From positions 140,724 through 204,723 of the forward strand of contig CAMTXC010000002.1 of assembly GCA_947085635.1 (NCBI GenBank): a stretch of DNA of 64,000 nucleotides, read 5' to 3'. The DNA comes from an uncultured Actinomycetes bacterium (GTDB lineage Bacteria; Actinomycetota; Thermoleophilia; RBG-16-64-13). The notes beneath the pieces were generated by a model, which saw nothing but the letters and a program-made list of their open reading frames with translations, was not told the DNA's origin and did no database searches. Numbering within the stretch: the stretch's first letter is position 1; the number at the start of each line of letters is the position of its first letter. The translations under genes were made by a program, and so were the position numbers. This document shows, piece by piece, positions 9,012-37,895 of the stretch.

Positions 9012-9977
9012 ATGAGCCGTCGGATCCTCGTAGTCGAAGACGACGCCGACCTGCGCGGGATGCTGCAGAGTCTTCTCGAAGAAGACGGTTACGAGGTGAC
9101 GGTGGCCGAGGATGGGCTCGAAGGACTGCGCCAAGTGGTCGACGCCCCTCCCGAACTCATCATCTCCGATGTCCTGATGCCTCGCATGAGCGGACTCGAG
9201 TTTTGCGCCTTGCTGAAGGACAGCCCACAGACCCACCACATCCCGCTCCTCTTCCTCACCTGCGTCGACGATCCGGTGAACGGCTTCGAAGTGGGCGCCG
9301 ACGACTACCTGGTGAAGCCGTTCCGGCAGCGTGAGCTGCTCGCTCGGCTGAGGGCCATCCTCCGTCGCACCGAGTCGCTGCCCCCGCAGATGGCCACCCA
9401 GGGGCTGAGGGGCAATCTGAGCGAACTGAGCATCGCGGAAGTCCTGCAGACCCTTCACGTCGGGGGGGCTTCGGGGTGCCTCTCCGTGGTCACCGCCGAT
9501 GCCTCCGGCCGGGCCCGTCTATGGTTGGAGCAAGGGGAGCTCGTGGCCGCCAAGGTCGAAGGTGCGGAACTCTTCGACGGCGAAGAGGCCTTCTTCTTCG
9601 CTGCGCGCTGGGAGGAGGGGGCGTTTGCGTTCGACTCGGCCAACCGGGCAGAGCATTGGACCGTCCAGAACACCATTGAGAGCCTGCTGCTAGAGGCCGC
9701 CCGCCGGCTGGATGAGGATGACCCAGAGGAGGGTGGACTGTCGCGTGCCACCTCGCGCTCGTGCCGCATCCGAGCCGAGATGCCCGGGCGCGCAGAGCTC
9801 GAGGCGCGGGTGGTCGAGGTGCGGAACCGCCTGAAACTCAAGGCGTTCGAGGCACTCATGGCCGGGCGGCCCCTGCACCACGGCGAGGCTGTTTCCTTCG
9901 TGCAATTCGTAGACCCCGGCGTCGACCTACCGGAGGAGCTCGACGAGTTGATAGAACGCATGCTGAGCCAGGAGTGA
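9012..9977 (+). CDS. Response regulator: N-terminal receiver domain fused to a PATAN/DUF4388 domain
   Basis: REC motifs ILVVEDDADL, IISDVLMP, DDYLVKPF. These are followed by LRGNLSELSIAEVLQTLHVGGASGCLSV...WEEGAFAFD, typical of DUF4388. Confidence 0.75.
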   Translation: MSRRILVVEDDADLRGMLQSLLEEDGYEVTVAEDGLEGLRQVVDAPPELIISDVLMPRMSGLEFCALLKDSPQTHHIPLLFLTCVDDPVNGFEVGADDYLVKPFRQRELLARLRAILRRTESLPPQMATQGLRGNLSELSIAEVLQTLHVGGASGCLSVVTADASGRARLWLEQGELVAAKVEGAELFDGEEAFFFAARWEEGAFAFDSANRAEHWTVQNTIESLLLEAARRLDEDDPEEGGLSRATSRSCRIRAEMPGRAELEARVVEVRNRLKLKAFEALMAGRPLHHGEAVSFVQFVDPGVDLPEELDELIERMLSQE

Positions 9978-13718: not shown

Positions 13719-13745
13719 GTCGAAATCGGACACCTATGGTAAGGT
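13717..13745 (+). promoter_or_regulatory. Candidate sigma-70-type promoter with extended -10
   Basis: TTGTCG (13717-13722), 17-nt spacer, TGgTAAGGT (13737-13745). It lies in a 229-bp intergenic region that looks less GC-rich than its flanks. Confidence 0.35.
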
Positions 13746-13921
13746 TATTGAGCTCGACCTTGTGCGTGATCCGCTCAAACTTGAGCCAACACATTTTCCT
13801 TGGGAGGCACGTTCTCCCGGCCGGCTCAGCTCGCCGGAGACAGTCGCCCACCTGCATACGCAGGTTCAAGGGAGAAGCGGACACGGCAAGGTGGAGCATT
13901 TCTTTTCTCCGGAGGAAGACG

Positions 13922-14446
13922 ATGCAGCGAAAGCGTAAGACCGTCCAGGTGTTACTCGTAGTCACGCTCGTGCTGGTCAGTCTCTCGCTCGCTGTGGGCT
14001 GTGGGGGCGACGAGACGACCACAGACACTCAGCCACCCGACCCGGGCGCTGTCGTCGCTGAGACCACTACGACCATCGCGGGTCCCCCGAAAGCGTTCAA
14101 GCACCTCATCGGAACCGCACTGGCCCTCACAGATGAGTCGCCTGAGAAGGTGCGGGCCAGCATCGATCGCCGCACGCCGATGGTGATCGCGTTCTACGTG
14201 GCCGGCGGGAACGACGACGCCGTCGTGCTCAAGCATCTCGATGACCTGGCGGTGCGGTTCCCCGAGATCGATTTCTACCGGTTCGACTACAAGCTTCCCG
14301 ATGAATACGGGGACCTGAGTGCGCTCTTGGAGATCGATTATCCTCCGCAAGTGACGTTCGTGGACGACCGTGGGATCATCCAAGCCGTGACCTCCGGATA
14401 CGCCGACGAAGGCACGCTTAACCAGAACCTAACCAATATCCGGTAG
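13922..14446 (+). CDS. Putative lipoprotein, function unknown (possible thioredoxin-like fold without CXXC)
   Basis: ATG at 13922 preceded by GGAGGA. Signal peptide MQRKRKTVQVLLVVTLVLVSLSLAVGC with a lipobox Cys, then a Thr/Pro-rich linker. I rejected the track ORF start at 13736. Confidence 0.6.
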   Translation: MQRKRKTVQVLLVVTLVLVSLSLAVGCGGDETTTDTQPPDPGAVVAETTTTIAGPPKAFKHLIGTALALTDESPEKVRASIDRRTPMVIAFYVAGGNDDAVVLKHLDDLAVRFPEIDFYRFDYKLPDEYGDLSALLEIDYPPQVTFVDDRGIIQAVTSGYADEGTLNQNLTNIR

Positions 14447-16788: not shown

Positions 16789-17193
16789 ATGTCCGCCCGC
16801 ACAGACACCGTTTCCCTCACCATCCCGCGTGCTCAGGAGTTCTTCCCCCTGTTCAACATGCTTCTTGGAGGCATCGCGACTCGGCGGGATCTTTCGCTGG
16901 AGGCGCTCGACGATCTGCAGCTGGCCGTCGACAACGTGATCCTGGAGGACCGCGGCTCCACGGACGATCTTTTTCTCGCGGTGACCCTCGAGGAAGACGC
17001 GCTGGAGATAGTCATCTCCCCGCTCTCCGATCCCGACCTTCACAGCACGTTGGTTCATGGCGCTGTTTCGGTCGATGCGGCCGATCGATGCATAGACGTA
17101 TGCCTCCTACTGAGCCCACTCGTCGATCGATACGTGGTGCGCGACCTCGACTCGGGCACCTTCGCTCTCGAGTTGCGGAAACTGCTCCGGTAG
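16789..17193 (+). CDS. Hypothetical protein, possible degenerate RsbW/SpoIIAB-like anti-sigma factor
   Basis: 134 aa, ending 9 nt upstream of a SigB/F-type sigma gene. LQLAVDNVILED resembles the HATPase N-box region, but no DxGxG or G2 ATP-binding boxes are visible. Confidence 0.35.
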   Translation: MSARTDTVSLTIPRAQEFFPLFNMLLGGIATRRDLSLEALDDLQLAVDNVILEDRGSTDDLFLAVTLEEDALEIVISPLSDPDLHSTLVHGAVSVDAADRCIDVCLLLSPLVDRYVVRDLDSGTFALELRKLLR

Positions 17194-17202
17194 GGGGCAT
17201 CC

Positions 17203-18024
17203 GTGGACATCGGCTCCGCTGACGTGAACACCGAACAGATGCCACTGCAGGCACGCATGGGGAACGCCCCCGAGAAGGAACTGCTTCGACGCATCCATCG
17301 CGAAGCGGATACGGCGGCGCGGGAGGAGTTGATCACGCGCTACCTGCCGCTCGTGCGCAGTCTCGCCCGTCGCTTCTCTTCGCGAGGCCAGCCTGTGGAA
17401 GACCTCATCCAGGTGGGGTCCATAGGCTTGATCAAGGCAATCGATCGCTTCGACATAGAGCGAGGCGTGGAGCTCTCCACCTACGCGACTCCCACCATCC
17501 TCGGTGAAATCAAGCGCTACTTCCGCGACAAGGGTTGGGCCGTCAAAGTGCCGCGCGCCCTGCAGGATCTGAACATCCGCCTCAATCGGATCATCGAGCA
17601 GCTCACGGTGGAGTTCAACCGTTCTCCTACCATCGCCGAACTCGCTGAGGCGTGCGATGTGTCGGAGGAAGAGGTACTCGAAGCCCTCGAAAGCGGCAGG
17701 GCCTACAACTCGCTGTCCCTGTTCTCGAGTGGATCACCCGACGATGAGGATTCACTCGAGCTACTCGACTACCTCGGTCGGGAGGACGACGAGTACAAGC
17801 TGGTCGAGCAGCGCAGGTACCTGGCGCCCGCAATGGGACGGCTGGATGAACGAGAGCGCCTCATCCTGCACTTGCGGTTCTTCGAAGGGATGACCCAGAC
17901 CCAGATCGCAGCCCGTGTGGGTATTTCGCAGATGCACGTGTCCAGACTGATCCGCAAGTCGATCGAAGTCCTGCGACACCACATGGTCGATCAGGACGGC
18001 ATCCCGCCCGACACATCCGGCTGA
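17203..18024 (+). CDS. Group-3 RNA polymerase sigma factor, SigB/SigF type
   Basis: Region 2 DLIQVGSIGLIKAIDRFD, STYATPTILGEIKRYFRDKGWAVKVPR; region 4 LDERERLILHLRFFEGMTQTQIAARVGISQMHVSRL. Start is GTG 17203, with ATG 17239 as an alternative. Confidence 0.85.
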   Translation: MDIGSADVNTEQMPLQARMGNAPEKELLRRIHREADTAAREELITRYLPLVRSLARRFSSRGQPVEDLIQVGSIGLIKAIDRFDIERGVELSTYATPTILGEIKRYFRDKGWAVKVPRALQDLNIRLNRIIEQLTVEFNRSPTIAELAEACDVSEEEVLEALESGRAYNSLSLFSSGSPDDEDSLELLDYLGREDDEYKLVEQRRYLAPAMGRLDERERLILHLRFFEGMTQTQIAARVGISQMHVSRLIRKSIEVLRHHMVDQDGIPPDTSG

Positions 18025-22246: not shown

Positions 22247-23131
22247 ATGGCGACGGCAAGAACACGAGCCGCGGGGTGTGATCGGTTGGAAGTAAGGGCG
22301 AGCACAGGGGTAGTCTGCATTCTTGGTCATCCGGTACGCCATTCACGATCGCCGGCGATGCACAACGCCGCCTTCGCCGAAGAGGGCCTCGACCTGGTCT
22401 ACGTGGCCTTCGATGTACCCGAAGCAGGCCTGCCTTCCGCCATCGACGGCCTCCGCAGCCTGGGGTTCGTGGGCGCCAATATCACGGTGCCGCACAAGGA
22501 GAGTGTGGTCCCACTGCTCGACGAGACCGACGAACTCGCCACCAAGATCGGCGCCGTGAACACGATAGTGGCTGATCGCGGGCGGCTGCGCGGCTACAAC
22601 ACAGACGCGGAGGGCTTCCTTCGCGCGCTGGAGCGAGGGTGGGGGAGAGGGCCGGAAGGCGCGCGCTGCCTCGTGCTGGGGGCCGGCGGCGCGGCGCGCG
22701 CGATCGTCGCGGCGCTCGTGCACGCACGGGCGGCCGAGGTCGTGGTGCATAATCGCACCGCGGCGCGCGCCCGTAGACTCTGCTCTGACGCGGTCCTCTG
22801 GTCCAGTGTCCCGGTGCGCGCGATCGAGACCGAGGGGCTCGGGCAGGTCGTCTCGGAGACCGACTTGATCGTGAACGCCACCTCCGTAGGCCTCGACGGT
22901 ACGTTCAAGGCAGTACCGCTTCCTGTCGATATGGTGAAGGAGGGCCACGTTGTGATGGACGTCGTGTATTCTGATTCGATGACACCGCTGTTGGAAGCAG
23001 CCCACGGGAGGGGTGCGACAGTGATCGAAGGCACAGAGATGCTGGTGCAACAAGCCTGCCTCGCCTACAAATTGTGGACAGGGAGGATCGCTCCCGTGCA
23101 TCTGTTCCGAAACAGGGCTTCCAGCGACTGA
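22247..23131 (+). CDS. aroE: Shikimate dehydrogenase
   Basis: ILGHPVRHSRSPAMHNAAF, NITVPHK, GAVNT, GYNTD, LGAGGAARA. The start is uncertain (ATG 22247 or TTG 22286). Confidence 0.85.
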   Translation: MATARTRAAGCDRLEVRASTGVVCILGHPVRHSRSPAMHNAAFAEEGLDLVYVAFDVPEAGLPSAIDGLRSLGFVGANITVPHKESVVPLLDETDELATKIGAVNTIVADRGRLRGYNTDAEGFLRALERGWGRGPEGARCLVLGAGGAARAIVAALVHARAAEVVVHNRTAARARRLCSDAVLWSSVPVRAIETEGLGQVVSETDLIVNATSVGLDGTFKAVPLPVDMVKEGHVVMDVVYSDSMTPLLEAAHGRGATVIEGTEMLVQQACLAYKLWTGRIAPVHLFRNRASSD

Positions 23132-24852
23132 TGCAGCTGCCGAGCGAAGAGATACCCCTGCGCAAGCCGGGGAAGAAGCGCACCGGCGAGATCCTCGTGG
23201 AGATGGGGCTGCTCACACCCCAGCAGCTCGAAGAGGCACTCGAGGAACAGAAGACCTCGCATCTGCGCATCGGCGAAGTGCTCGTAGCGAAGGGGTGGAT
23301 CACGCACACCGAGCTGACCGAGGCCCTTGCCCGTCGTCTGGGTGTGCGGTATCTCGATCTCTCGACCACCAAGGTCGAGCATGCCGCGGCGAACCTGATC
23401 ACCGAGAAGGACGCCAGGCGCTACGCGGCGATCCCCGTGTCGTACCTCAACGACCACACCTTGCTGGTGGCCATGGTCGATCCGGCCAACATCTTCGCGA
23501 TCGACGACCTGCGCATCCTCACCGGGTGCGACGTCGAGCCGGCGATCGCCACCGAAGAAGACATCTTCGGGCAGATCAGCAAGATGCGGCGACTCGAGGA
23601 CAAGGTCGGTCAGAACCTCGAGGACCAGCCCGAATCGATGGAACTCAGCCCCGACGAAGTACGGGACATCAGGGAGCAACTTGATGAGGCTCCCATCGTC
23701 AAGTTGGTCAACAGCATCATGGCTCAAGCGGCCGAGGACGGCGCGTCCGACATCCACTTCGAGCCGCAGGCCAAGGAGATGGTCATCCGCTTCCGCAACG
23801 ACGGGGTGCTGCACGAAGTCATGTCAGTGCCGCGGCGCATGCAATCCGGAGTGCTCTCGCGCATCAAGATCATGGCCGACCTCGACATCGCCGAGCGCCG
23901 CGTGCCTCAGGATGGTCGTATCAGCCTCATGGTCGGAGGAAAGCCCATCGACATGCGGGTGGCCTCGCTGCCGACCGTGTACGGTGAGAAGATAGTGATG
24001 CGACTTCTGGATAGGTCCAACGTCATGCTCCGCCTGCAGGACCTCGGCTTCTCGGAGAAGAGCCTCGCCCGATTCCGCAAGTCGTTCACGAAGCCGTACG
24101 GAGCGATGCTGGTAACGGGTCCGACGGGCTCGGGCAAATCCACAACGCTGTATGCTACGTTGAACATACTGAACACGCCGGAAAAGAACATCATCACAGT
24201 CGAGGATCCTGTGGAGTACCGATTGACCGGCATCAACCAGGTACAGACGAATCTGCGGGCGGGGCTGACCTTCCCTGTCGCCCTCAAGTCGATCCTGCGC
24301 TGCGACCCGGACATCGTCATGATCGGCGAGATCCGGGACAAGGAGACCGCTCAGATAGCCGTGGAGTCCGCTCTCACCGGTCACCTGGTCCTTTCGACTC
24401 TGCACACCAATGACGCTCCCGGCGCCTTGTCACGTCTCACCGAGATGGGCATCGAGCCGTTCCTCACAGCTTCCGCCGTCGATTGCGTTCTCGCTCAGCG
24501 CCTCGCACGCAAGCTGTGTGAAGGGTGCAAGGAACCCTACAAGCCCACGCAGGAAATGCTCCGTCGGAACGACTTCCCCATGGAGGCGTGTGAAGACTGG
24601 GAGAACGTCACCCTCTACAAGCCGGTAGGATGTCCGCGCTGCAACGGAACCGGCTACAAGGGGCGCCTCGGCATCTACGAGGTCATGCTGGTCACCGAGG
24701 CCATCGAGAGACTCACTGTCGAAAGGAAGAGCGCTGACGAGATCAGTCGTGTCGCGCAGGCAGAGGGGATGAAGAGCCTCCGGGAGGACGGTATCGAAAA
24801 AGTGCTGCAGGGCCGTACAGCGATCGAGGAGATCGCCCGTGTCATTGTGTGA
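23131..24852 (+). CDS. pilB: Type IV pilus assembly ATPase PilB (GspE family) with an MshEN-like N-terminus
   Basis: ATG 23131 overlaps the aroE stop (TGATG). N-terminal T2SSE_N repeats, Walker A GPTGSGKSTT, Asp/His boxes, and the tetracysteine CEGC...CPRCNGTG. Confidence 0.9.
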   Translation: MQLPSEEIPLRKPGKKRTGEILVEMGLLTPQQLEEALEEQKTSHLRIGEVLVAKGWITHTELTEALARRLGVRYLDLSTTKVEHAAANLITEKDARRYAAIPVSYLNDHTLLVAMVDPANIFAIDDLRILTGCDVEPAIATEEDIFGQISKMRRLEDKVGQNLEDQPESMELSPDEVRDIREQLDEAPIVKLVNSIMAQAAEDGASDIHFEPQAKEMVIRFRNDGVLHEVMSVPRRMQSGVLSRIKIMADLDIAERRVPQDGRISLMVGGKPIDMRVASLPTVYGEKIVMRLLDRSNVMLRLQDLGFSEKSLARFRKSFTKPYGAMLVTGPTGSGKSTTLYATLNILNTPEKNIITVEDPVEYRLTGINQVQTNLRAGLTFPVALKSILRCDPDIVMIGEIRDKETAQIAVESALTGHLVLSTLHTNDAPGALSRLTEMGIEPFLTASAVDCVLAQRLARKLCEGCKEPYKPTQEMLRRNDFPMEACEDWENVTLYKPVGCPRCNGTGYKGRLGIYEVMLVTEAIERLTVERKSADEISRVAQAEGMKSLREDGIEKVLQGRTAIEEIARVIV

Positions 24853-24911
24853 GCAGACGAGCCTCGGGGCACCAGGACAAGGCCTGCTATTGATCTACCT
24901 GTCCCAGCGTC

Positions 24912-25988
24912 ATGGAGGTGACCGTGGAACTCGTTGAGGTCTTGAAGGAGGTGCTCGAGAGGGGAGCCTCCGACCTCCACATCTCAGTGGGGGTGCCGCC
25001 GACTCTTAGGGTCAGTGGCAGGCTTATACATCTTGATGCCCCGAGGGTCACCACGAACGACGCGCGTTCCCTCATCTACAGCATCCTTACGCAAGATCAG
25101 CGGCAACAACTCGAGAACGACTGGGAGCTTGACTTCTCGTACTCGGTGCCCGGCCGAGCGCGCTTCCGGGTCAACGCGTATTTCCAGCGCAACAGCCTCG
25201 GAGCCGCTTTTCGTCTCATCCCGGTGGACATCAAGTCCATCGACGAGCTGGGGTTGCCGCCGGTTCTGCACGAACTAGCGGCCAAGCCGCGCGGTTTCGT
25301 ACTCGTCACTGGGCCCACGGGCTCGGGCAAGTCCACGACCCTGGCGGCCATGATCGACGCTATCAACAAAGACCGCCACGATCACATCATGACCATCGAG
25401 GATCCGATCGAGTTCCTTCACCGCCACCAGAACTGCATCGTAAACCAACGCGAGGTGGGAACCGACACGAAGTCCTTCGCCAAGGCCCTGAAGTCTGTGC
25501 TGCGGCAAGATCCCGACATCATCCTCGTGGGGGAGCTCCGCGATCTCGAGACGATCACGACCGCTCTGACCGCCGCGGAGACGGGGCACCTGGTCTTCGC
25601 GACGCTTCACACGCAAGACGCACCTCAGACCATCGATCGCCTCATAGACGTGTTCCCGCCGCATCAGCAAGAGCAGATACGTGTGCAGATCGCCGCGACC
25701 ATCCAGGGCATCGTCACGCAGCAATTGCTTGAGCGGCGCGACGGCAAGGGCCGGATCGCCGCCTGCGAGGTCTTGATCCCGACGCCTGCAGTTCGGAACC
25801 TCATCAGGGAAGGGAAGACGCATCAGATCTACACCACCATGCAGACGGGCACCAAGCACGGCATGATGACCATGGACTCCACCTTGGCCGATCTTGTGAG
25901 GCGAGGCTTGATCACAAAGGAACTGGCTGATCGTCGATCGTCGAATCCGGAAGACCTCAAGCGACTTCTAGTATCTGGGGCGGCGTGA
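24912..25988 (+). CDS. pilT: Type IV pilus retraction ATPase PilT
   Basis: GASDLHISVG, Walker A GPTGSGKSTT, HIMTIEDPIEF, ILVGELRD, TGHLVFATLHT, AIRNLIREGK-type motif (AVRNLIREGKTHQI). Confidence 0.9.
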   Translation: MEVTVELVEVLKEVLERGASDLHISVGVPPTLRVSGRLIHLDAPRVTTNDARSLIYSILTQDQRQQLENDWELDFSYSVPGRARFRVNAYFQRNSLGAAFRLIPVDIKSIDELGLPPVLHELAAKPRGFVLVTGPTGSGKSTTLAAMIDAINKDRHDHIMTIEDPIEFLHRHQNCIVNQREVGTDTKSFAKALKSVLRQDPDIILVGELRDLETITTALTAAETGHLVFATLHTQDAPQTIDRLIDVFPPHQQEQIRVQIAATIQGIVTQQLLERRDGKGRIAACEVLIPTPAVRNLIREGKTHQIYTTMQTGTKHGMMTMDSTLADLVRRGLITKELADRRSSNPEDLKRLLVSGAA

Positions 25989-26041
25989 CGCTCGGTTCGA
26001 AGAGCGTTCGCGGGTAGCGCTGTGGGAAAGGAAGGACCACC

Positions 26042-27256
26042 ATGACCACCTTCACATACACGGCCAAGCCGTCAGGCGGCAGCCAGATGGGCGGCGAGAT
26101 ACAGGGGGATTCGAAGGCCGCGGTGGCCGCCGAACTCCGGCGGCGTGGCCTCACCGTGATGTCCCTTGAGGAGAAAAGGGGCCTCCCCAACATCAACGAG
26201 CTGCTCGAGGGAATGAGCAGTGTCAAACTCCGCGACAAGGTCATCTTCTCTCGACAGTTCGCCACCATGATCAACGCGGGTCTTGCGCTGCTCCGGGCGC
26301 TCTTCATCCTGGAAGAGCAGACGGAGAACCCGCGCTTGCGGAAGATCATCCAGGCCGTCCGCCAAGATGTCGAGGCGGGTATGCCCCTCTCGGATTCCTT
26401 CGAGAAGCACCCGATCGCGTTCGACAGACTCTACGTCAGTATGGTCCGGGCGGGCGAGGTCGGCGGGGTGCTCGACCTGACCCTCGAACGCCTGGCGACC
26501 CAGCTCGAGAAAGACGACAGCCTCCGAAGATCGGTCAAGTCGGCCATGACGTACCCGATTCTCATCTTCGTATTCGCGATCGTCGTGCTGTTCGCGCTCA
26601 TTATCTTCGTGATACCTGTGTTCGCCGGCATGTACGACGGATTGGGCGGGCAATTGCCGCTTCTCACCCGGATCATGGTGGGAGCCAGCGACTTCATGCG
26701 CTCGTTCTGGTTCATCGTGTTCCCAGCCGCCTTCCTCCTCTTCTACGGGCTCAAGCGGCTCAAGAACACCAAGACGGGCACCGAGACCTGGGACAAGATC
26801 AAGCTGCGCCTACCCATGAAATTGGGCCCGATCGTGCAGAAAATCGCCGTTTCCCGCTTCAGCCGGACGCTGGCGACGCTGGTGAGTTCCGGTGTGCCGA
26901 TCTTGCAGGCCATCGATATCACTGGAAAGACCTCGGGCAACACGGTCATCGAGTACGCGATGGACGCAGTCAGGGAGAACATCAAGAGCGGAGATTCGAT
27001 CTCACGTCCCCTTGAGAAGATAAAGGTGTTTCCACCGATGGTCACTCAAATGATCGCCATCGGGGAGGAGACAGGTGCTCTCGACACCATGCTCCACAAG
27101 ATCGCCGACTTCTACGAGGACGAGGTCGATTCCGCGGTCAAGTCACTGACGTCGATCATCGAGCCGATCATGATGATCTTCATCGGTGGCATCGTGGGTC
27201 TCGTCGTCGTCTCTATGTACCTGCCGATCTTCAACCTGTTCCAGCTGGTGGAGTAG
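26042..27256 (+). CDS. pilC: Type IV pilus platform protein PilC (GspF family)
   Basis: Two T2SSF repeats (FSRQFATMINAGLALLRAL; FSRTLATLVSSGVPILQAI), three TM segments, 404 aa. GGAAGGA lies upstream of the ATG. Confidence 0.9.
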   Translation: MTTFTYTAKPSGGSQMGGEIQGDSKAAVAAELRRRGLTVMSLEEKRGLPNINELLEGMSSVKLRDKVIFSRQFATMINAGLALLRALFILEEQTENPRLRKIIQAVRQDVEAGMPLSDSFEKHPIAFDRLYVSMVRAGEVGGVLDLTLERLATQLEKDDSLRRSVKSAMTYPILIFVFAIVVLFALIIFVIPVFAGMYDGLGGQLPLLTRIMVGASDFMRSFWFIVFPAAFLLFYGLKRLKNTKTGTETWDKIKLRLPMKLGPIVQKIAVSRFSRTLATLVSSGVPILQAIDITGKTSGNTVIEYAMDAVRENIKSGDSISRPLEKIKVFPPMVTQMIAIGEETGALDTMLHKIADFYEDEVDSAVKSLTSIIEPIMMIFIGGIVGLVVVSMYLPIFNLFQLVE

Positions 27257-27296
27257 GCGCGGACTATCCGACGCCGAAGGCGCACGGGCCGACGGG

Positions 27297-28148
27297 ATGT
27301 ACATGTCTAGATCTTCTAGCTTGGAAGACGATATACAGGCAGCCGCTTCTCTCCGCACGCCGGTTAGGCTGGGAGGCAAAGAACAGCCCGCCGGCGCCCA
27401 ACCGCCACCGTTCGCGGCCAACGAAACCCTTCTGGCGGCGTACCGCCGCGGAGATTTGAGCGCGCTCGATCGACTTCTCGAGAAGAACGAGCCGTTGCTG
27501 CATCATGCTCTGAAGCGGTTCTCGTACTCGTCGGAGCCTTACGAAGATCTGTTCCAGGTCGCACGCCTCGGCTTCATGAAGGCGGTCCACAGGTACGACG
27601 AGACCCGCGGCATCGCCTTCTCCACGTACGCCATCGCAATCGCCGACGGCGAGATCCGTCATCATCTTCGAGACGCCCTGCTGGTACGTCAGCCGCGCTG
27701 GGCGCGAGGCCTCTACACGCAGATCGTCCAAGCGCAGACGGAGTTCTTCCGGGAGCACGGCCGCTCACCGACGATCGCGGAGGTGGCAGACCTCGTCAAC
27801 ATCCAACAGAAGGGTATCCTGGAGATCATCAGGGCACAAGCGAGCCTTAACGTGCATTCCCTAGACGAGCCCTTTGACGGACCCGATGCCCGAGCACCCG
27901 ACAGGACCCTGGTGCGATCCATCCGCGCAGAGTCGTTCTCGCTGCCCATCGAGGATCGTATCCTGTTGTACGAAGCGCTGGGCGCACTCTCCGAACTTCA
28001 GAAGAAGATTATCTACCTGCTGTTCTTCGGCGATCTGACGCAGCAGGAGGTCGCAGACGAGATCGGCCTTACGCAACGCACCGTGTCGCGCGAGCACGTG
28101 AAGGCCTTGGACCGGCTCAAGGCGATCCTGAGCAAGCGCATAATCTGA
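27297..28148 (+). CDS. Group-3 sigma-70 family sigma factor immediately downstream of pilC
   Basis: Region 2 YEDLFQVARLGFMKAVHRYD, FSTYAIAIADGEIRHHLRD; region 3; region 4 LSELQKKIIYLLFFGDLTQQEVADEIGLTQRTVSRE. I chose ATG 27297; the track ORF start at 27186 overlaps pilC. Confidence 0.8.
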   Translation: MYMSRSSSLEDDIQAAASLRTPVRLGGKEQPAGAQPPPFAANETLLAAYRRGDLSALDRLLEKNEPLLHHALKRFSYSSEPYEDLFQVARLGFMKAVHRYDETRGIAFSTYAIAIADGEIRHHLRDALLVRQPRWARGLYTQIVQAQTEFFREHGRSPTIAEVADLVNIQQKGILEIIRAQASLNVHSLDEPFDGPDARAPDRTLVRSIRAESFSLPIEDRILLYEALGALSELQKKIIYLLFFGDLTQQEVADEIGLTQRTVSREHVKALDRLKAILSKRII

Positions 28149-28301
28149 ACCCTCTGCGCCCCTCGGCAGCGACTCGTCGCGGAATCACCCCTACGCCGCG
28201 GCTGTGTTCTCACGCACGATAATGTATGTTATGTAAAGGCGCGAAAACGACAGACCCTCTGTACTCCTACCCACAGGTACTTCTGGAGGCAGTCGCCGGC
28301 G

Positions 28302-28814
28302 TCAGTACCGGATCAGGCTGAAGACATCGTAGCCCTCGAGCCGGTCACGACCACCCAGGAACTCCAACTCGATGACGAAGGCTAGGCCGACCACTACACC
28401 GCCTAACTTTTCCACCAGCTCGATCTTCGCTCTCGCGGTTCCCCCGGTGGCAAGAAGGTCGTCGTGGATGATGACACGCTGACCGGGTTCTATCGCGTCC
28501 ACATGCATCTCGAGGCTGTCCACGCCGTACTCCAGGTCGTAGTCAGCGCGGGCTACGTCCCAAGGCAGCTTCCCCGGCTTCCGCGCCGCCGCGAAGCCCG
28601 CCCCCACCGCATAGGCAAGCGCCGCGCCGAGGATGAACCCTCTGGCCTCCGCTCCCAGAATCACATCGGGGGTTCGCTCCCTGCTGAAATCGGCGAGTCG
28701 ATCCACCGTATGGCGAAGCGCCGAAGGGTCCTGAAGGAGCGGCATAATGTCCTTGAAGATGATGCCCTCTTTCGGGAAATCGGGCACGTCGCGGATGAAG
28801 GCGCTCAGATCCAT
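28302..28814 (-). CDS. apt: Adenine phosphoribosyltransferase
   Basis: IRDVPDFPKEGIIFKDIMPLLQD, PRPP motif VIIHDDLLATGGTA, 170 aa. Confidence 0.92.
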   Translation of the reverse strand: MDLSAFIRDVPDFPKEGIIFKDIMPLLQDPSALRHTVDRLADFSRERTPDVILGAEARGFILGAALAYAVGAGFAAARKPGKLPWDVARADYDLEYGVDSLEMHVDAIEPGQRVIIHDDLLATGGTARAKIELVEKLGGVVVGLAFVIELEFLGGRDRLEGYDVFSLIRY

Positions 28815-28840
28815 AAGGCTCCTCGGGTCATCTTGGGAGG

Positions 28841-29593
28841 TCAGTCGGCGAGCCGCGAGAGCTCTCGGTAGAGAAGCAGGTCGAGCAGACGAGCCATGAG
28901 CGAGCCGAGATCGGCCAACGCCCGCACCCCCTCCTCTCTCCTGTCTTTGTTCGCCGATCTCATCGACGGCGCCACCACCTGTGCCAGCAGGGCGGCCTCA
29001 CGCTCCGCCGACGAACTGAGAACGCGCAGATTGCGGGGTTCGACCCCATGGCGACTCAGGAGGCTGCAGATGCGCACCACCTCCAGGTCCGGTTCCGAGA
29101 GGCGGGTCTCGACCACCGGTGTGGCAGCATCGAAGAGATGGAACTCAGCGAGAGCGCGCAGAAAGGACTCCGAAACGCCGGTTATGCTCAACGCTTGGTC
29201 CCAAGTGTACACGGGCTCGTCTCGCTTGAGGCCGCGAGGAGTGTCGAAAGGTCCGGAGGGTGCCAGCGGCCGACCTACCGCTGAAGCGGTGCCACGCTCG
29301 AGACGTTCCTTGATCACATCGAGGGGCAGGAACTCGTCCCGCTGTAGGGTCAGGATAGTGCGCAGCGTTCGCACGGCCGCCTGGCCGTACTTACGGTAGC
29401 CCCCCGGGGTGCGCTCCGGCGACACGAGCCCTCGATCCTCCAGGTAACGGATCTTGCTAATGGTCAGGTCGGGGAACTCATCGCGGAGCCATGCCACCAC
29501 TCCGCCTATCGCCAAGAGGGTTTCGCCCTGCCCCTCAAGACCTCCCGCAACCTCTCCGCCGGACGTATCATGACGATGGGAGGGATCCGCCAT
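28841..29593 (-). CDS. MerR-family transcriptional regulator with a C-terminal extension
   Basis: HTH region ISKIRYLEDRGLVSPERTPGGYRKYGQAAVRTLRTILTLQRD. Its start overlaps the FHA gene stop (TGATG). The gcvH-FHA-MerR order resembles the mycobacterial gcvH-garA-MerR neighbourhood. Confidence 0.75.
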   Translation of the reverse strand: MADPSHRHDTSGGEVAGGLEGQGETLLAIGGVVAWLRDEFPDLTISKIRYLEDRGLVSPERTPGGYRKYGQAAVRTLRTILTLQRDEFLPLDVIKERLERGTASAVGRPLAPSGPFDTPRGLKRDEPVYTWDQALSITGVSESFLRALAEFHLFDAATPVVETRLSEPDLEVVRICSLLSRHGVEPRNLRVLSSSAEREAALLAQVVAPSMRSANKDRREEGVRALADLGSLMARLLDLLLYRELSRLAD

Positions 29594-30060
29594 CAGTCGA
29601 TCGGTTCCAGGAACGCCAGTTTGAACTTCCCGATCTGCAGTTCGTCACCGTCGGCGAGGTGCTGGCGCTCGACTCTGCCCCGGTTGACGTAGGTGCCGTT
29701 CAGACTGTTCAGATCCTCTACCGCGTACCCGGTGGCATCCCGCACCACGCGGGCGTGATGGCGAGAGACAGTGACATCGTCGAGGAACAGGTGGCTCTCC
29801 GGGTTGCGGCCGATGGTCAGGAGATCGCTGTCGAGGGGGATCTGCTCTCCCTCGCTGCCCCCGCCGGCTCTGATCAGAAGAACGGGGTAGCGACTCGCCT
29901 GTCCGGGGACGTCTGGGCCGGTTCCGACCTCATCCCCGTCGAGGGGCGCATACGTGACCGTGGTCTCGGCGAGGTCGGCGACGACCAGGCGGCTTCCGCA
30001 ACGACTGCAGAAGTTGGCGTCTCCGCTGTTTTCAAAGGAGCACTTGGCGCACGAGGTCAT
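29593..30060 (-). CDS. FHA-domain protein with an N-terminal zinc ribbon
   Basis: CAKCSFENSGDANFCSRCG zinc ribbon; FHA core LTIGRNPESHLFLDDVTVSRHHARV...SLNGTYVN...L..GDELQIGKF. Confidence 0.85.
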   Translation of the reverse strand: MTSCAKCSFENSGDANFCSRCGSRLVVADLAETTVTYAPLDGDEVGTGPDVPGQASRYPVLLIRAGGGSEGEQIPLDSDLLTIGRNPESHLFLDDVTVSRHHARVVRDATGYAVEDLNSLNGTYVNRGRVERQHLADGDELQIGKFKLAFLEPID

Positions 30061-30347
30061 GCCTCGCCCTCTTCTGCGTGGGCGAGTTGCCTCCGGTAGT
30101 CGGTGAACTCGGCTGCCATCTGATCTTCGATGCCCCGCAGTGCTTCCGGGCTCTCCAGTATGCGCGCGCGGTCCTCAGCATCGGTGTTGTTGATGATGTA
30201 TGGGTCGGCCATCACCTCGTCGAACCTCCGACCCTTGCTCAGTTCCGTCACGATGTACCGGAGGATCCTCTCCTCGCGCACACCGACGGCGAGTTCGCGG
30301 AAGAGCCGCTCCATGCCCCTTACGACTCGGTCGATCCTATCCCCCAT
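30057..30347 (-). CDS. Hypothetical 96-aa protein with no recognised family
   Basis: The ORF has an ATGA overlap onto the FHA gene and starts 15 nt after the RsiG-like gene. It is acidic and helical, and I recognise no motif. Confidence 0.5.
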   Translation of the reverse strand: MGDRIDRVVRGMERLFRELAVGVREERILRYIVTELSKGRRFDEVMADPYIINNTDAEDRARILESPEALRGIEDQMAAEFTDYRRQLAHAEEGEA

Positions 30348-30362
30348 GGGAACACCTCCGCC

Positions 30363-30641
30363 TCAGAGTTCGTCTTCGGCCAACCCGCGGGAACTGAGGA
30401 TGCCGCTGAGCTTCTCGACGTCGCCTTCGACGAAGAGGCTCTTGCCGCTCGAATGCTTGTCTCTCAGCCGGCGAACCATCTCTGCGCGAAGGATGTCGAG
30501 TTTCGCGTGGATGATCCGGCGGGCCTTTGAGACCTCTCGCTCCTCCTCCGCCAGTTGCTCGGCGAGGAGCTTGATCTCGTCATCGCCCTTCGACTGTATG
30601 TCGATGAGCAAATCGAACGATGAGGTGTCGTAGTCGTTCAT
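30363..30641 (-). CDS. Small coiled-coil protein with a single RsiG-type c-di-GMP-binding motif (candidate anti-sigma factor)
   Basis: 92 aa from ATG 30641. EEEREVSKARRIIHAKLD matches E-x3-S-x2-R-x3-Q-x3-D with Q replaced by H. The sequence is predicted helical throughout. I rejected the track start at 30677. Confidence 0.55.
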   Translation of the reverse strand: MNDYDTSSFDLLIDIQSKGDDEIKLLAEQLAEEEREVSKARRIIHAKLDILRAEMVRRLRDKHSSGKSLFVEGDVEKLSGILSSRGLAEDEL

Positions 30642-30648
30642 GGCTTCC

Positions 30649-30677
30649 AGTATACCCCCGTGGCTACGAACCATCAA
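30649..30677 (-). promoter_or_regulatory. Candidate sigma-70-type promoter for the RsiG-like operon (probably leaderless)
   Basis: The minus strand reads TTGATG, 17 nt, TATACT, then 7 nt (GGAAGCC) to the ATG. Confidence 0.45.
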
Positions 30678-30721
30678 CCTTGACTAGAGGTTAGCGACCG
30701 GGCCGCCTCCCCCAAGATCGA

Positions 30722-30744
30722 GGGCAGACACCACGCGCCTGCCC
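30722..30744 (-). terminator. Candidate terminator hairpin downstream of gcvH
   Basis: GGGCAG / CTGCCC 6-bp stem with an 11-nt loop, about 40 nt after the gcvH stop. The following U-tract is weak (TCGATCTT). Confidence 0.3.
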
Positions 30745-30784
30745 TTCGTGGTACCTGGTCTTGCCGTACGGGCGAGCCGCAGGT

Positions 30785-31171
30785 TCACTCATCCTGCTCT
30801 GCAAGGATCTGCTCATATTCCTCAGCCGAGATGAGATCCTCGAGTTCGCTCGGGTCGCTCAGCTTGACCTTGATGAGCCAGCCGTCTTCGTAGGGGCTCT
30901 CGTTGATCAGCTCGGGAGCATCGACGACTTCATCGTTAGCCTCGACAATCGTGCCGCTCAGCGGAGCGTAGACGTCGCTCACCGCCTTCACCGATTCGAT
31001 CTCGGCATACGTAGTACCGGCGGTGACTTCCGTGCCTACCTCGGGAAGCTCGATGTAGACGATGTCACCGAGGGCCTCCTGGGCGTAATCGGTCACACCG
31101 AGTGTGGCGATGTCACCATCGATACGGGCCCAATCGTGCTCCTTGTGGTACTTGAGGTTCCTGGGGTTCAC
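30785..31171 (-). CDS. gcvH: Glycine cleavage system protein H
   Basis: YHKEHDWARIDGDIATLGVTDYAQ, lipoyl-lysine motif ESVKAVSD. GTG 31171 is preceded by AAAGGAG. Confidence 0.9.
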   Translation of the reverse strand: MNPRNLKYHKEHDWARIDGDIATLGVTDYAQEALGDIVYIELPEVGTEVTAGTTYAEIESVKAVSDVYAPLSGTIVEANDEVVDAPELINESPYEDGWLIKVKLSDPSELEDLISAEEYEQILAEQDE

Positions 31172-31252
31172 TAGCGCTCCTTTCTCGCCAAGCGTGGCTG
31201 GCCACATGATAGCACAGGCTTCCTGGCCTCCCGACCGTCGAGCAGGCGTTAC

Positions 31253-31588
31253 TCAACTCGCCTGCTGCACGTCGCTCAGACCCTCCAGAAGCAGGCTGTC
31301 GAGGGTCCGATCTATCGTCACTGGGGAGGTGATGGCAGTGAGCTCGGCACTCTCGAAGGCGAAGTGGCCCTCCTCGAGCGCGAGGAGACCCCAGAAGGCC
31401 TCAAGGGCCGAATCGACTCCCACCTGCTCCGCGTGGATGACTCGTCCCCGGGCTATGACGATCATGCCCTCGACCTCGGTCGCATTGGCCGAGCGGCGGA
31501 GTGCCACCTCTCCCGTCCTCTTCCCATGCACGAGTACCTGCAGGATCTCAGGAAGAGCGAAGTCCCTCAGGTCGCCGACAAAGGCCAT
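31253..31588 (-). CDS. Stand-alone PATAN/DUF4388 domain protein
   Basis: GDLRDFALPEILQVLVHGKRTGEVAL...IVIARGRVIHAE...ALEAFWGLLALEEGHFAFE. ATG 31588 is preceded by AGGAGGG. It is transcribed divergently from mglBA. Confidence 0.7.
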   Translation of the reverse strand: MAFVGDLRDFALPEILQVLVHGKRTGEVALRRSANATEVEGMIVIARGRVIHAEQVGVDSALEAFWGLLALEEGHFAFESAELTAITSPVTIDRTLDSLLLEGLSDVQQAS

Positions 31589-31628
31589 CGCCCTCCTATG
31601 CCTCGTCATCCAACGATGATCGCGGAGG

Positions 31629-31656
31629 ATTCTACCAACGCGGACCCGCGTAGCAA
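31629..31656 (-). promoter_or_regulatory. Candidate promoter for the PATAN gene
   Basis: The minus strand reads TTGCTA, 16 nt, TGgTAGAAT (extended -10). Confidence 0.4.
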
Positions 31657-31679
31657 AGGCCACGGGGCCTTGTTATACT
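31651..31679 (+). promoter_or_regulatory. Candidate promoter for mglB-mglA
   Basis: TAGCAA, 17 nt, TGtTATACT (extended -10). Its -35 hexamer is the reverse complement of the PATAN promoter -35. Confidence 0.35.
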
Positions 31680-31735
31680 TCTGCCCGTGCTTCCGGCCGT
31701 ATCGTAGCGGCCCAGCTGCGCACAAGGAGGTGCTC

Positions 31736-32230
31736 TTGGCTCGCCGCAAGGGGCTGGTAATCAACGATCGGCAGATGCAGCTCGTGGATGACATCCTCGA
31801 TAAGCTGCGCCAGGTTTCGGGGTCACGATTCATCGCCCTTGTGTCCACGAGTGGCCAACCGATCACCACATCGTCGGTGGAAGCTCACCCCGACACCCTG
31901 TCCCTCGCCTCCTTGGCCGCCGGCTCGTTCGCCGCGACGCAGCAACTTGCCGAGGTGCTGCACGAGCGCGAGTTCACCCTGTTGTTCCACGAGGGCCGCG
32001 AGAGCAATCTGCACGTGGCGCAGGTCACGGATCAAGTCCTGCTGGTGATCACGTTCGGACGGGAGACTCAGGTGGGCAAGGTGCGGCTCTACACGAACCG
32101 GGCGGTGGAGGTGCTCCGGCCTGTGTTCGATTCGAACGATGAGGACGACCAGACCAACCTCATGATCGACGACGACTACTCGCTGCTCGCGGACGAAGCC
32201 ATAGACGACCTGTTCGCGGACATGGAGTGA
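31736..32230 (+). CDS. mglB: Roadblock/LC7-family protein MglB (GTPase-activating partner of MglA)
   Basis: Similar by eye to Myxococcus MglB (SLASLAAGSFAA..., LFHEGRESNLHV, LLVITF, VRLY), including the acidic C-terminal tail ending DDLFADME. TTG 31736 lies 5 nt after AAGGAGG; an alternative ATG is at 31775. Confidence 0.8.
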   Translation: MARRKGLVINDRQMQLVDDILDKLRQVSGSRFIALVSTSGQPITTSSVEAHPDTLSLASLAAGSFAATQQLAEVLHEREFTLLFHEGRESNLHVAQVTDQVLLVITFGRETQVGKVRLYTNRAVEVLRPVFDSNDEDDQTNLMIDDDYSLLADEAIDDLFADME

Positions 32231-32234
32231 CTTC

Positions 32235-32819
32235 GTGCCCCTGATCAACTTCGCCGCACGTGAGATCAACTACAAGATCGTCTACTACGGATGCGGTCTG
32301 TGCGGCAAGACCACGAACATCCAGTACATCCACAAGAAGGTGAACCCGAACGCCCGCGGCAAGCTTGTCAGTATCGCCACCGAAGAGGAGCGCACCCTCT
32401 ACTTCGACTTCCTTCCGCTTTCCCTCGGAACGGTCAAGGGCATGAAGACGCGTTTCCACCTCTACACCGTGCCGGGCCAGTCCTACTACAACGCTTCGCG
32501 CCGACTCGTGTTGCAGGGAGTCGACGGCATCGTGATGGTTGCCGACAGTCAGATCACTCGGCTGGACGAGAATGTCGAGAGCTATCTGAATCTCTGGGAC
32601 AACCTCCTCGACCAAGGCGACGACTTGTCCCGCCTGGGTTTCGTGATCCAGCTCAACAAGCGGGATCTCACGGACATCTTCTCGGCCGAGGATCTCAAGG
32701 AGCTCCTCAACCACACGAACTCGCCCGTGACGGAAGCGTGCGCACTCACCGGCCAAGGAGTCTTCGAGACCCTCAAGACTGTGTGCAAGCAGGTCATCGC
32801 CAAGACCGGTCAGACCTAG
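32235..32819 (+). CDS. mglA: Ras-like small GTPase MglA
   Basis: Collinear by eye with Myxococcus MglA: REINYKIVYYGCGLCGKTTN, ERTLYFDFLPLSLG, RFHLYTVPGQ (Thr in place of the Ras Asp), NKRDL. GTG start 4 nt after mglB, with GGAG upstream. Confidence 0.88.
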   Translation: MPLINFAAREINYKIVYYGCGLCGKTTNIQYIHKKVNPNARGKLVSIATEEERTLYFDFLPLSLGTVKGMKTRFHLYTVPGQSYYNASRRLVLQGVDGIVMVADSQITRLDENVESYLNLWDNLLDQGDDLSRLGFVIQLNKRDLTDIFSAEDLKELLNHTNSPVTEACALTGQGVFETLKTVCKQVIAKTGQT

Positions 32820-37821: not shown

Positions 37822-37895
37822 TCGGGACGGCCAGATTCGAACTGGCGACCTCCCGGCCCCCAGCCGGATGCGCTACCAGACTGCGCCACGTCCCG
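37822..37895 (-). tRNA. tRNA-Pro (anticodon GGG), no encoded CCA
   Basis: Manual cloverleaf: acceptor CGGGACG/CGTCCCG, D arm GCGC-AGTCTGGTA-GCGC, anticodon arm TCCGG-CTGGGGG-CCGGG, variable AGGTC, T arm GCCAG-TTCGAAT-CTGGC, discriminator A. 74 nt. Confidence 0.9.

Follow-up and report, generated by a model that had tools for sequence, protein, structure and literature searches.

Pilus motor, rsiG-FHA-ftsR and mglBA gene blocks adjoin in an uncultured Thermoleophilia lineage: most likely a synteny mosaic

The stretch of DNA analysed here (64,000 nucleotides (nt) of contig CAMTXC010000002.1, assembly GCA_947085635.1, hereafter the window) comes from an uncultured actinobacterium of the class Thermoleophilia and encodes, within about 10 kb (23131-32819), five elements that might bear on type IV pili. 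These are a pilus motor (PilB, PilT, PilC), an MshEN-type motif for cyclic di-GMP (c-di-GMP) on PilB, a group-3 sigma factor beside the motor genes (here SigP), a single-motif RsiG-like anti-sigma factor chained to FHA and MerR proteins, and MglA/MglB with a PATAN protein. Do they form one locus in which several inputs control the pilus, as a first-pass annotation had proposed, or do separate blocks merely lie side by side? All five elements are present where they had been placed, and parts for several inputs are encoded, namely c-di-GMP sensing on PilB, a c-di-GMP-dependent anti-sigma factor, an extra sigma factor in the pilBTC operon and MglA/MglB/PATAN. Their union into one integrated locus was not supported. 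We conclude that the locus is most likely a synteny mosaic and not an integrated or co-evolved unit. On balance we favour the reading that the 10 kb consist of juxtaposed independent blocks and that RsiG acts on pilBTC-sigP via an unlinked WhiG sigma factor, as in Rubrobacter.

Distribution of the gene blocks

We collected RsiG-anchored loci from metagenome contigs and, by scanning the GTDB species representatives, from the best 80 of 579 relatives (all 80 Thermoleophilia). Loci were profiled by tblastn with the window proteins, and counts refer to genes within 10 kb of RsiG in the 51 species loci with full 10-kb flanks. The FHA gene was present in every one of these (51/51), ftsR, the MerR-family gene, in 48, pgsA in 47 and apt, downstream of ftsR, in 40. 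By comparison, mglA was found in 5/51 loci, pilB/pilC in 3/51 and SigP in 0/51. Co-conservation of the five elements in related genomes, which had been named as a check on an integrated locus, therefore largely fails outside one clade.

Within this clade (L001-L003, L088, L090, L094, L096, L098-L102 and the window, about 10 independent contigs) all parts are found together, as had been expected of an integrated locus. The whole order is kept, including alaS, ruvX, mltG, aroE, apt, gcvH and pgsA, with identities of 56-85% for SigP and 59-94% for RsiG; PATAN was undetectable in some members. As the housekeeping neighbours keep their order equally well in this clade, gene order is not specific evidence on function. 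All five elements together were found only in this one uncultured Thermoleophilia lineage.

Loci with other arrangements separate the parts. Contexts anchored on SigP fell into two groups, the clade above and the more distant L006 and L007 (SigP 55% identical). The latter two carry alaS-ruvX-mltG-aroE-pilBTC-SigP followed by pilins, a prepilin peptidase, minor pilins and PilM, and no RsiG block was found near their SigP-bearing pilus cluster. In L008, L009 and L012 pilBTC adjoins the RsiG block, and there is no sigma gene after pilC since the gap between apt and pilC measures just 216-315 bp. By these patterns the parts fall into three blocks, each inherited on its own: A, aroE-pilBTC-SigP; B, rsiG-FHA-ftsR; and C, PATAN/mglBA. 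A striking combination within 10 kb can thus come from three conserved blocks abutting in one lineage, which calls for caution in reading such neighbourhoods.

In one clade member sigP and apt are separated by an insertion of about 3.9 kb (L101/L102, 10730-14616), which marks the sigP-apt junction, the boundary between the pilus and rsiG blocks, as rearrangement-prone.

RsiG and the sigma factor of the pilus operon

The rsiG gene (30363-30641, minus strand; true start M13) encodes a predicted single-motif c-di-GMP-dependent anti-sigma factor of 92 amino acids (aa). The protein belongs to Pfam family PF22802 (48.9 bits, cut-off 27) and its matches in the PDB are the RsiG structures of Streptomyces venezuelae and Rubrobacter radiotolerans (6pfj, 7lq2-4; E ~4e-5). 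The c-di-GMP motif E(X)3S(X)2R(X)3[Q/H](X)3D is present once, as E34-S38-R41-H45-D49, in agreement with the initial description as a single-motif protein, and it is invariant in the homologs listed (120/120). Close RsiG relatives, and an identical RsiG protein, come from metagenome-assembled genomes labelled Thermoleophilia or Actinobacteria. An AlphaFold2 model places the motif on a confidently predicted long helix (residues 20-64, predicted local distance difference test (pLDDT) >90), followed by a short C-terminal helix; a Foldseek search with this single long helix was uninformative.

Of published relatives the RsiG of Conexibacter woesei is close in kind. It belongs to the same class, shares the motif E(X)3S(X)2R(X)3H(X)3D with His in place of Gln, self-interacts, and binds c-di-GMP with a dissociation constant of 25 uM alone and 1.7 uM with WhiG; single-motif RsiGs in general bind their cognate WhiG (PMC8325347). 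Identity to Conexibacter-type RsiG is ~50%, and the C. arvalis locus (L039) encodes rsiG-FHA-ftsR-apt without pil or mgl genes.

SigP (27297-28148, plus strand) is encoded by the last gene of the pilBTC operon, 40 nt after pilC in the window, no more than 40 nt after it in the clade loci, and directly 3' of pilC in every locus that carries it. Regions 2, 3 and 4 are present, which bears out its description as a pilus-adjacent group-3 sigma factor. Its best family is SigB/F/G (TIGR02980), where 179.6 bits remain below the cut-off of 234.35, and its second-best NCBIfam match is the SigF model PRK07408 (NF005644). On the FliA_WhiG model TIGR02479 it scored 83.4 bits against a cut-off of 189.6. 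The best PDB match was SigF (1l0o, 4.6e-29), compared with 1e-13 for S. venezuelae WhiG. Region 2.4/3.0 reads LRDALLVRQPRWARG where FliA/WhiG have LR..DW.PRSVR, and the DWxPRSVR signature that Escherichia coli FliA and WhiG share is missing from SigP. We considered SigP as a disguised WhiG and rejected this, as model scores, PDB matches and signature all speak against it. Judged by these comparisons SigP is a divergent SigB/F/G-like sigma factor, not WhiG/FliA, and so it is not the WhiG type that RsiG would bind.

Searches for promoters of a SigP-like kind gave no candidates that we retained. A scan for SigB/F-type promoters (GTTT-N13-17-GGGTAT) remained at or below shuffle expectation (4 vs 8.7 at one mismatch), and its one attractive match, 5' of rsiG, is really the sigma-70-type promoter TTGATG-17-TATACT described below. 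For the regions 5' of the pilins in L006 and L007 a SigF-type (TAGGC/GGTAA, PMC2532724) or sigma-G-type interpretation was dropped because of the few sequences available.

A sigma-28-like element within aroE

In the 3' part of aroE (22247-23131, plus strand; a shikimate-pathway gene), about 200 nt 5' of pilB, lies a putative sigma-28/WhiG-like promoter element (22905-22932, plus strand) that reads TCAAGG-N-GTCGATAT. It came to light only when L006 and L007 were brought into the comparison. At the equivalent codons of aroE L007 carries a perfect TAAA-N15-GCCGATAA (TAAAGTCC-N11-GCCGATAA), again ~200 nt before pilB, and L006 a sigma-28 site with two mismatches; the window clade together with L008, L009 and L012 reads (T)cAAGG-N-GTCGATAT at the same codons. 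With a relaxed sigma-28 pattern the element was the sole match in the 64 kb. Further sigma-28 sites lie before the riboswitch-containing pilin leader in L006 and before pilM in L007 (sites in these relatives with 0-2 mismatches: L007 5189-5215 and 18546-18573; L006 5456-5482 and 14070-14097).

A codon alignment of aroE from 15 loci showed only five invariant third positions out of 256, with a mean pairwise third-position identity of 0.39. Two of these five belong to the adjacent GTC-GAT of the element, and GAT is used here in 15/15 loci compared with 32% of Asp codons. The residues at this site are K-A-V-P-L-P-V-D in the window, K-V-P-A-P-L-T-D in L006 and K-V-P-A-A-L-A-D in L007. We regard an internal sigma-28/WhiG-type promoter for pilBTC(-sigP) inside aroE as likely. 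The element is kept in loci without SigP, which makes it probable that another sigma factor reads it. In Rubrobacter, WhiG promoters have been mapped within the pilus clusters (PMC8325347), and the sigma-28/WhiG-type element 5' of pilB would connect the motor genes with the sigma type that RsiG sequesters.

A second recurrent sigma-28-like sequence with two mismatches was seen at the pilB 3' end, just before pilT, in five loci (L002 16107-16080, L098 7473-7500, L100 7478-7505, L101 7353-7380, L008 15569-15542). It reads TAAyGGTnGAnCGCAAnAGyGCCGATGA (TAACGGTCGAGCGCAAGAGTGCCGATGA). We do not claim it as a promoter, since it encodes the conserved TVERKSADE and a promoter function is inseparable from this coding constraint.

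The rsiG-FHA-ftsR operon

On the minus strand rsiG, orf96, the FHA gene, ftsR and apt follow each other with junctions of 15, -4, -1 and 26 nt, and are therefore taken as one operon. The ftsR gene (28841-29593, minus strand) encodes a MerR-family cell-division regulator, the Rv1828/cg1631 equivalog, and is an FtsR by the model NF050798 (194.8 bits, cut-off 150); FtsR homologs carry the Rv1828_C domain. Directly upstream, its stop overlapping the ftsR start, is the gene for a protein with an N-terminal Zn ribbon and an FHA domain (29593-30060, minus strand; Pfam) at the position of odhI/garA. This protein matched the OdhI model NF041660 with its FHA domain only (106.6 bits vs 200), so it does not qualify as OdhI/GarA by that model. 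Translationally coupled to the FHA gene is orf96 (30057-30347, minus strand), which encodes a small helical conserved protein of 96 aa. Its homologs number only 13, with 40 invariant positions, and belong without exception to the clade in which gcvH, too, lies beside rsiG; orf96 had no Pfam or NCBIfam match, and the best Foldseek match in the PDB was at E 2.4 (AlphaFold2 model pLDDT 68).

Transcription of rsiG would start from a sigma-70-type promoter, TTGATG-17-TATACT (30677-30649, minus strand; -35 at 30677-30672, -10 at 30654-30649), which is conserved in seven lineages. In all of them just 6-7 nt separate the -10 from the start codon (7 nt in the window), and the rsiG mRNA therefore appears to be leaderless. 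An FtsR-box-like palindrome (30692-30670, minus strand) extends over the -35. Its consensus across Thermoleophilia, A-s-CCTCAAsCT-N3-sTTGA, agrees in register with the experimentally defined Corynebacterium glutamicum FtsR box AACCCTAAAGTAAAGGTTGAGGGTA at 15/18 specified positions (box from PMC6683498). The core CTCAA-N7-TTGA was present 20-160 nt 5' of rsiG without mismatch in 49/95 loci and with at most one mismatch in 80/95; exact copies amounted to only 75 in the entire 3.39 Mb searched. The window copy has a degenerate left arm. From this we infer that FtsR may autoregulate the operon headed by rsiG.

For Actinobacteria as a whole a 'strongly conserved' pairing of odhI/garA with ftsR has been described, with FtsR as an activator of ftsZ (PMC6683498). 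In common with this cluster of Corynebacterium and Mycobacterium, the operon has an FHA gene immediately before its FtsR equivalog and a similar palindromic box. It differs in an FHA protein that carries a Zn ribbon and stays under the cut-off for OdhI, in rsiG and orf96 inserted at the promoter-proximal end, in a box on the operon's own promoter and not on that of ftsZ, and in apt after ftsR instead of a nuclease and a second MerR gene. The L001 neighbourhood also holds pgsA, DUF881-DUF1290-DUF881 and gcvH, an order that matches that of Mycobacterium tuberculosis Rv1822-Rv1828, where gcvH, pgsA and DUF881/DUF1290 lie further upstream too. We conclude that Thermoleophilia have, in rsiG-FHA-ftsR, their own version of the pan-actinobacterial odhI/garA-ftsR cluster, extended by rsiG as its first gene. 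The operon that had been described as RsiG chained to FHA and MerR proteins is thus real, but it is an old, conserved housekeeping and regulatory block and not a pilus module. In the literature searched we found no paper that mentions RsiG together with FtsR or the FHA-FtsR pair.

The pilus motor operon and c-di-GMP

The motor genes are pilB for the extension ATPase (23131-24852), pilT for the retraction ATPase (24912-25988) and pilC for the platform protein (26042-27256), all on the plus strand; the two ATPases matched T2SSE and PilC matched T2SSF. In all clade loci the aroE stop and pilB start overlap (TGATG, 23129-23133 in the window), so pilB is translationally coupled to aroE. On the PilB model TIGR02538 the protein scored 657 bits, just under the cut-off of 675.65.

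The c-di-GMP motif proposed for PilB was confirmed by several searches. PilB has an N-terminal MshEN domain (Pfam MshEN, 65.6 bits), its residues 19-68 scored 68.5 bits on NF053729, the NCBIfam model for the MshE-related c-di-GMP motif (cut-off 38), and PDB matches of the N-terminus included the GSPII domains that bind c-di-GMP in Thermus PilF and Vibrio cholerae MshE (5htl, E 2e-19). The motif region (nt 23179-23337, plus strand) reads RTGEILVEMGLLTPQQLEEALEEQ-KTSHL-RIGEVLVAKGWITHTELTEALARR. Its two motifs of 24 residues each (17-40 and 46-69) and the 5-residue spacer between them correspond to the arrangement defined for MshEN by tandem RLGxx(L/V/I)(L/V/I)xxG(L/V/I)(L/V/I)xxxxLxxxLxxQ motifs (PMC5013675). 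The same pair and spacer at a T2SSE N-terminus are known from V. cholerae MshE, Thermus thermophilus PilF and the PilB of Myxococcus xanthus and Chloracidobacterium (PMC5013675, PMC11731258, PMC6957770). Unlike in these receptors, Thr takes the place of Leu in the first RLG across the whole clade, and motif 2 contains W and ends in R in place of its last Gln; the relaxed MshEN motif permits these two deviations of motif 2 (PMC5013675). Binding of c-di-GMP is predicted for PilB.

The source of c-di-GMP had been expected to lie outside the window, and the searches are consistent with this. GGDEF was absent from open frames and EAL-like motifs occurred only inside other proteins. In all six frames of the window nothing credible was found for GGDEF, EAL, HD-GYP, PilZ or prepilin motifs, and no cyclase or phosphodiesterase was among the identified open reading frames (ORFs). 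Directly 5' of prepilin genes in the SigP-bearing pilus clusters of L006 (14139-14214, 14934-15008) and L007 (10815-10889) are c-di-GMP-I riboswitches (Rfam RF01051/RF03167, above gathering scores). As predicted elements these are a third c-di-GMP route into pili within the class.

PATAN and MglA/MglB

A stand-alone PATAN/DUF4388 protein (31253-31588, minus strand; Pfam 59.7 bits vs 25) is encoded next to mglB (31736-32230, plus strand; TTG start), a Roadblock/LC7 GTPase-activating protein, and the small GTPase gene mglA (32235-32819, plus strand), the two mgl genes being 4 nt apart. MglA matched M. xanthus MglA (E 3e-73, ~62% identity), with both its intrinsic Arg finger (EERTLYFDF) and its catalytic Gln (VPGQ) retained. 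MglB matched M. xanthus MglB (E 1e-19) as well as Thermus MglB, and the two proteins are thus an MglA/MglB pair with an adjacent PATAN gene, as annotated. PATAN and mglBA are divergently transcribed from their own conserved extended -10 promoters, TGgTAGAAT ending at 31629 for PATAN (31656-31629, minus strand) and TGtTATACT for mglB (31671-31679, plus strand). In the rsiG, PATAN and mglBA units we saw sigma-A-type promoters and no WhiG- or SigF-type or shared regulatory signal.

MglB has the C-terminal helix, as in the polarity module of M. xanthus and T. thermophilus, PATAN genes next to mglA/mglB have been described (PMC4316618), and PATAN regulators bind the pilus motor in Synechocystis (bioRxiv 10.1101/2021.06.11.447907). 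Unlike in the Myxococcus and Thermus systems, the host is an actinobacterium and PATAN stands alone as a protein of one domain; any link to pili is drawn by analogy.

A second PATAN protein, a receiver-PATAN/DUF4388 fusion (9012-9977, plus strand; 87 and 67 bits), is encoded 22 kb away, its gene beginning 8 nt after relA/spoT (6767-9004). It is a candidate for a link from two-component or (p)ppGpp signalling to the pilus/Mgl system.

Proposed mechanism and alternative readings

The interactions between proteins, and between proteins and DNA, in the following scheme are predictions from sequence. Block A would be the tail of a long housekeeping operon, alaS-ruvX-mltG-aroE-pilB-pilT-pilC-sigP, in which pilBTC-sigP is expressed by read-through, as the aroE-pilB overlap indicates, and probably also from the sigma-28/WhiG-type promoter within aroE. 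At high levels of c-di-GMP, which should be produced elsewhere, an RsiG homodimer with two c-di-GMP dimers would sequester a WhiG-type sigma factor that is encoded outside the window and drives pilB-pilT-pilC-sigP from the aroE-internal promoter. Less transcription from within aroE would then lower PilB, PilT, PilC and SigP. SigP might act as a second-tier sigma factor, with Synechocystis SigF on pilA1 as precedent (PMC2532724). c-di-GMP might also act post-translationally, sensed directly by the MshEN domain of PilB. Block B (rsiG-orf96-ZnFHA-ftsR-apt) would be transcribed as a leaderless sigma-A-type operon with the FtsR-box-like palindrome over its -35, whereby rsiG expression would be tied to FtsR. 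Block C, divergent PATAN and mglB-mglA with separate sigma-A-type extended -10 promoters, could be a polarity switch in which MglA/MglB/PATAN set the pilus site, by analogy with Myxococcus, Thermus and the cyanobacterial PATAN regulators.

Several observations weigh against a WhiG-mediated effect of RsiG on the pilus operon. No WhiG-like gene was found in the 64-kb window or in 118 related loci (1.9 Mb), so that a WhiG in this organism is assumed from relatives. The window element has three mismatches to the strict TAAA-N15/16-GCCGATAA and a weak -35, and it was missed by a strict WhiG scan (TAAA-N14-16-GCCGATAA, at most two mismatches), which gave one match in the window vs 3.4 expected, inside secD and outside the region. 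The element might also be conserved for some other role at the DNA or RNA level. Genes for pilins, prepilin peptidase or pilMNO were not found in the window. The net logic of c-di-GMP is also conflicting, as RsiG would lower pil transcription and MshEN binding usually stimulates the ATPase. We nevertheless think it improbable that the conserved GTCGATAT in aroE is something other than a promoter (a regulator binding site, an RNA element, or a constraint from protein sequence or codon use), with pilBTC-sigP expressed by read-through only. Such a reading would fit the position of the element within a coding region at a conserved P-V-D motif, the poor -35 in the window clade and the overlap of aroE stop and pilB start codons. 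However, a constraint on the protein leaves the invariance of the synonymous GAT and GTC unexplained, and in the distantly related L006 and L007 the corresponding codons form near-perfect full sigma-28 promoters despite differing amino acids.

An integrated pilus control locus, with RsiG as the c-di-GMP-dependent anti-sigma factor of SigP and FHA/MerR and MglAB/PATAN as further inputs, is in our view very unlikely. SigP is without an adjacent anti-sigma gene and RsiG without an adjacent WhiG, SigP is always fused to the pilBTC operon, and a distance of 2.2 kb between sigP and rsiG is kept in about 10 clade contigs at the RsiG identities of 59-94%, all of which could point to a pair. Yet SigP scores 179.6 bits as SigB/F/G and 83.4 as FliA/WhiG and is without DWxPRSVR, and RsiG is near-universal in Thermoleophilia but has SigP alongside in 0/51 species loci. 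L008, L009 and L012 have RsiG and pilBTC and no SigP gene, L006 and L007 have SigP and no RsiG nearby, the promoters of rsiG, PATAN and mglBA are of sigma-A type with no common regulatory signal, and FHA-FtsR is a pan-actinobacterial cell-division and metabolism pair. The opposite extreme would be that RsiG serves the FHA-FtsR circuit (cell division, Ser/Thr phospho-signalling or central metabolism) and its pilus and mgl neighbours are accidental. Here rsiG-FHA-ftsR with tight or overlapping junctions in 48-51/51 species loci, the FtsR-box-like operator conserved class-wide at the rsiG promoter, the rarity of pilus adjacency and the wide variation of WhiG regulons among actinobacteria (PMC12871210) are all in its favour. 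We still hold it to be rather unlikely, because a sigma-28-like element is conserved 5' of pilB in two clades, a link of WhiG to pili has been published for the sister class Rubrobacteria, and the target of an anti-sigma factor is not defined by operon membership alone. A further, tentative suggestion is that RsiG-FHA-FtsR wires c-di-GMP/sigma switching to cell division and Ser/Thr signalling and that beside pilBTC this is joined by a WhiG-to-SigP cascade or an RsiG-SigP pairing.

Relation to known systems and novelty

Among the closest known systems is the control of type IV pili by RsiG-c-di-GMP-WhiG in Rubrobacter radiotolerans (PMC8325347; PDB 7lq2-7lq4). Shared with it are a small single-motif RsiG of one long helix with the c-di-GMP motif, a basal actinobacterial lineage, and sigma-28-type promoters associated with pil genes. 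Unlike in Rubrobacter, similarity of RsiG to its counterpart is just ~27 bits, pilBTC has an extra, SigF-like sigma gene fused to it, the likely promoter is embedded in aroE, there is no linked diguanylate cyclase or phosphodiesterase, and WhiG is not in the window. The rsiG gene is 3 kb from pilC here, whereas the Rubrobacter tags for RsiG (1442) and the pilus-linked gene (0872) have distant numbers. SigP further resembles Synechocystis SigF, which is required for pilA1 transcription (PMC2532724), as a non-sigma-28 group-3 sigma factor tied to pili; it differs in being physically fused to pilBTC.

The combination of elements had been thought undescribed, which is only partly true, as the main regulatory logic and the components have been published. 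This applies to RsiG of the single-motif His type from Thermoleophilia, to pilus control by RsiG, c-di-GMP and WhiG and the WhiG promoters of pil clusters (PMC8325347; PMC12871210), to MshEN on PilB (PMC5013675) and to PATAN beside mglA/mglB (PMC4316618). Apparently new are the predicted class-wide rsiG-FHA-ftsR operon with its FtsR-like operator and leaderless rsiG, the SigF-like sigma factor fused to pilBTC, and the sigma-28-like promoter inside aroE. If the proposed scheme is true, control of pili by a c-di-GMP-armed anti-sigma factor would extend from Rubrobacter to the sister class Thermoleophilia, mostly uncultured soil and sediment bacteria. It would add a hidden sigma-28-type promoter in a housekeeping gene and a second, SigF-like sigma factor in the pilus motor operon, as well as a class-wide physical, and probably regulatory, link of rsiG to the FHA-FtsR cell-division pair.

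Other features of the window

The window has a G+C content of ~65%, and genes were called by ORF length and codon-position G+C followed by Pfam and NCBIfam scans. The order on the plus strand is RsbW-like gene, SigB/F/G sigma gene, alaS, ruvX, mltG, aroE, pilB, pilT, pilC and sigP, and on the minus strand, by rising coordinate, apt, MerR (ftsR), Zn-ribbon-FHA, orf96, rsiG, gcvH and PATAN. Beyond the rsiG/PATAN block the plus strand continues with mglB, mglA, a VanW-like gene and others. The housekeeping genes apt (adenine phosphoribosyltransferase; 28302-28814, minus strand) and gcvH (glycine cleavage H protein; 30785-31207, minus strand), both from the Pfam/NCBIfam scan, are interleaved within the ~10 kb of the five elements.

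Just upstream of alaS is a second sigma gene (17203-18024, plus strand), a SigB/F/G member by TIGR02980 (298.5 bits vs cut-off 234.35), next to a weakly matching RsbW-like gene (16789-17193, plus strand). A sigma gene at the equivalent position 5' of alaS was also seen in L006, L007 and the clade loci.

An Rfam scan revealed no riboswitches in the window and matched only two RNAs. A tRNA gene (37822-37895, minus strand; 62.3 bits) lies between pgsA and gpsA. A 6S RNA (RF00013, 64.9 bits vs gathering score 46.4) is encoded at 13749-13901 on the plus strand and overlaps the 5' part of an ORF at 13736-14446, which is therefore probably over-called.

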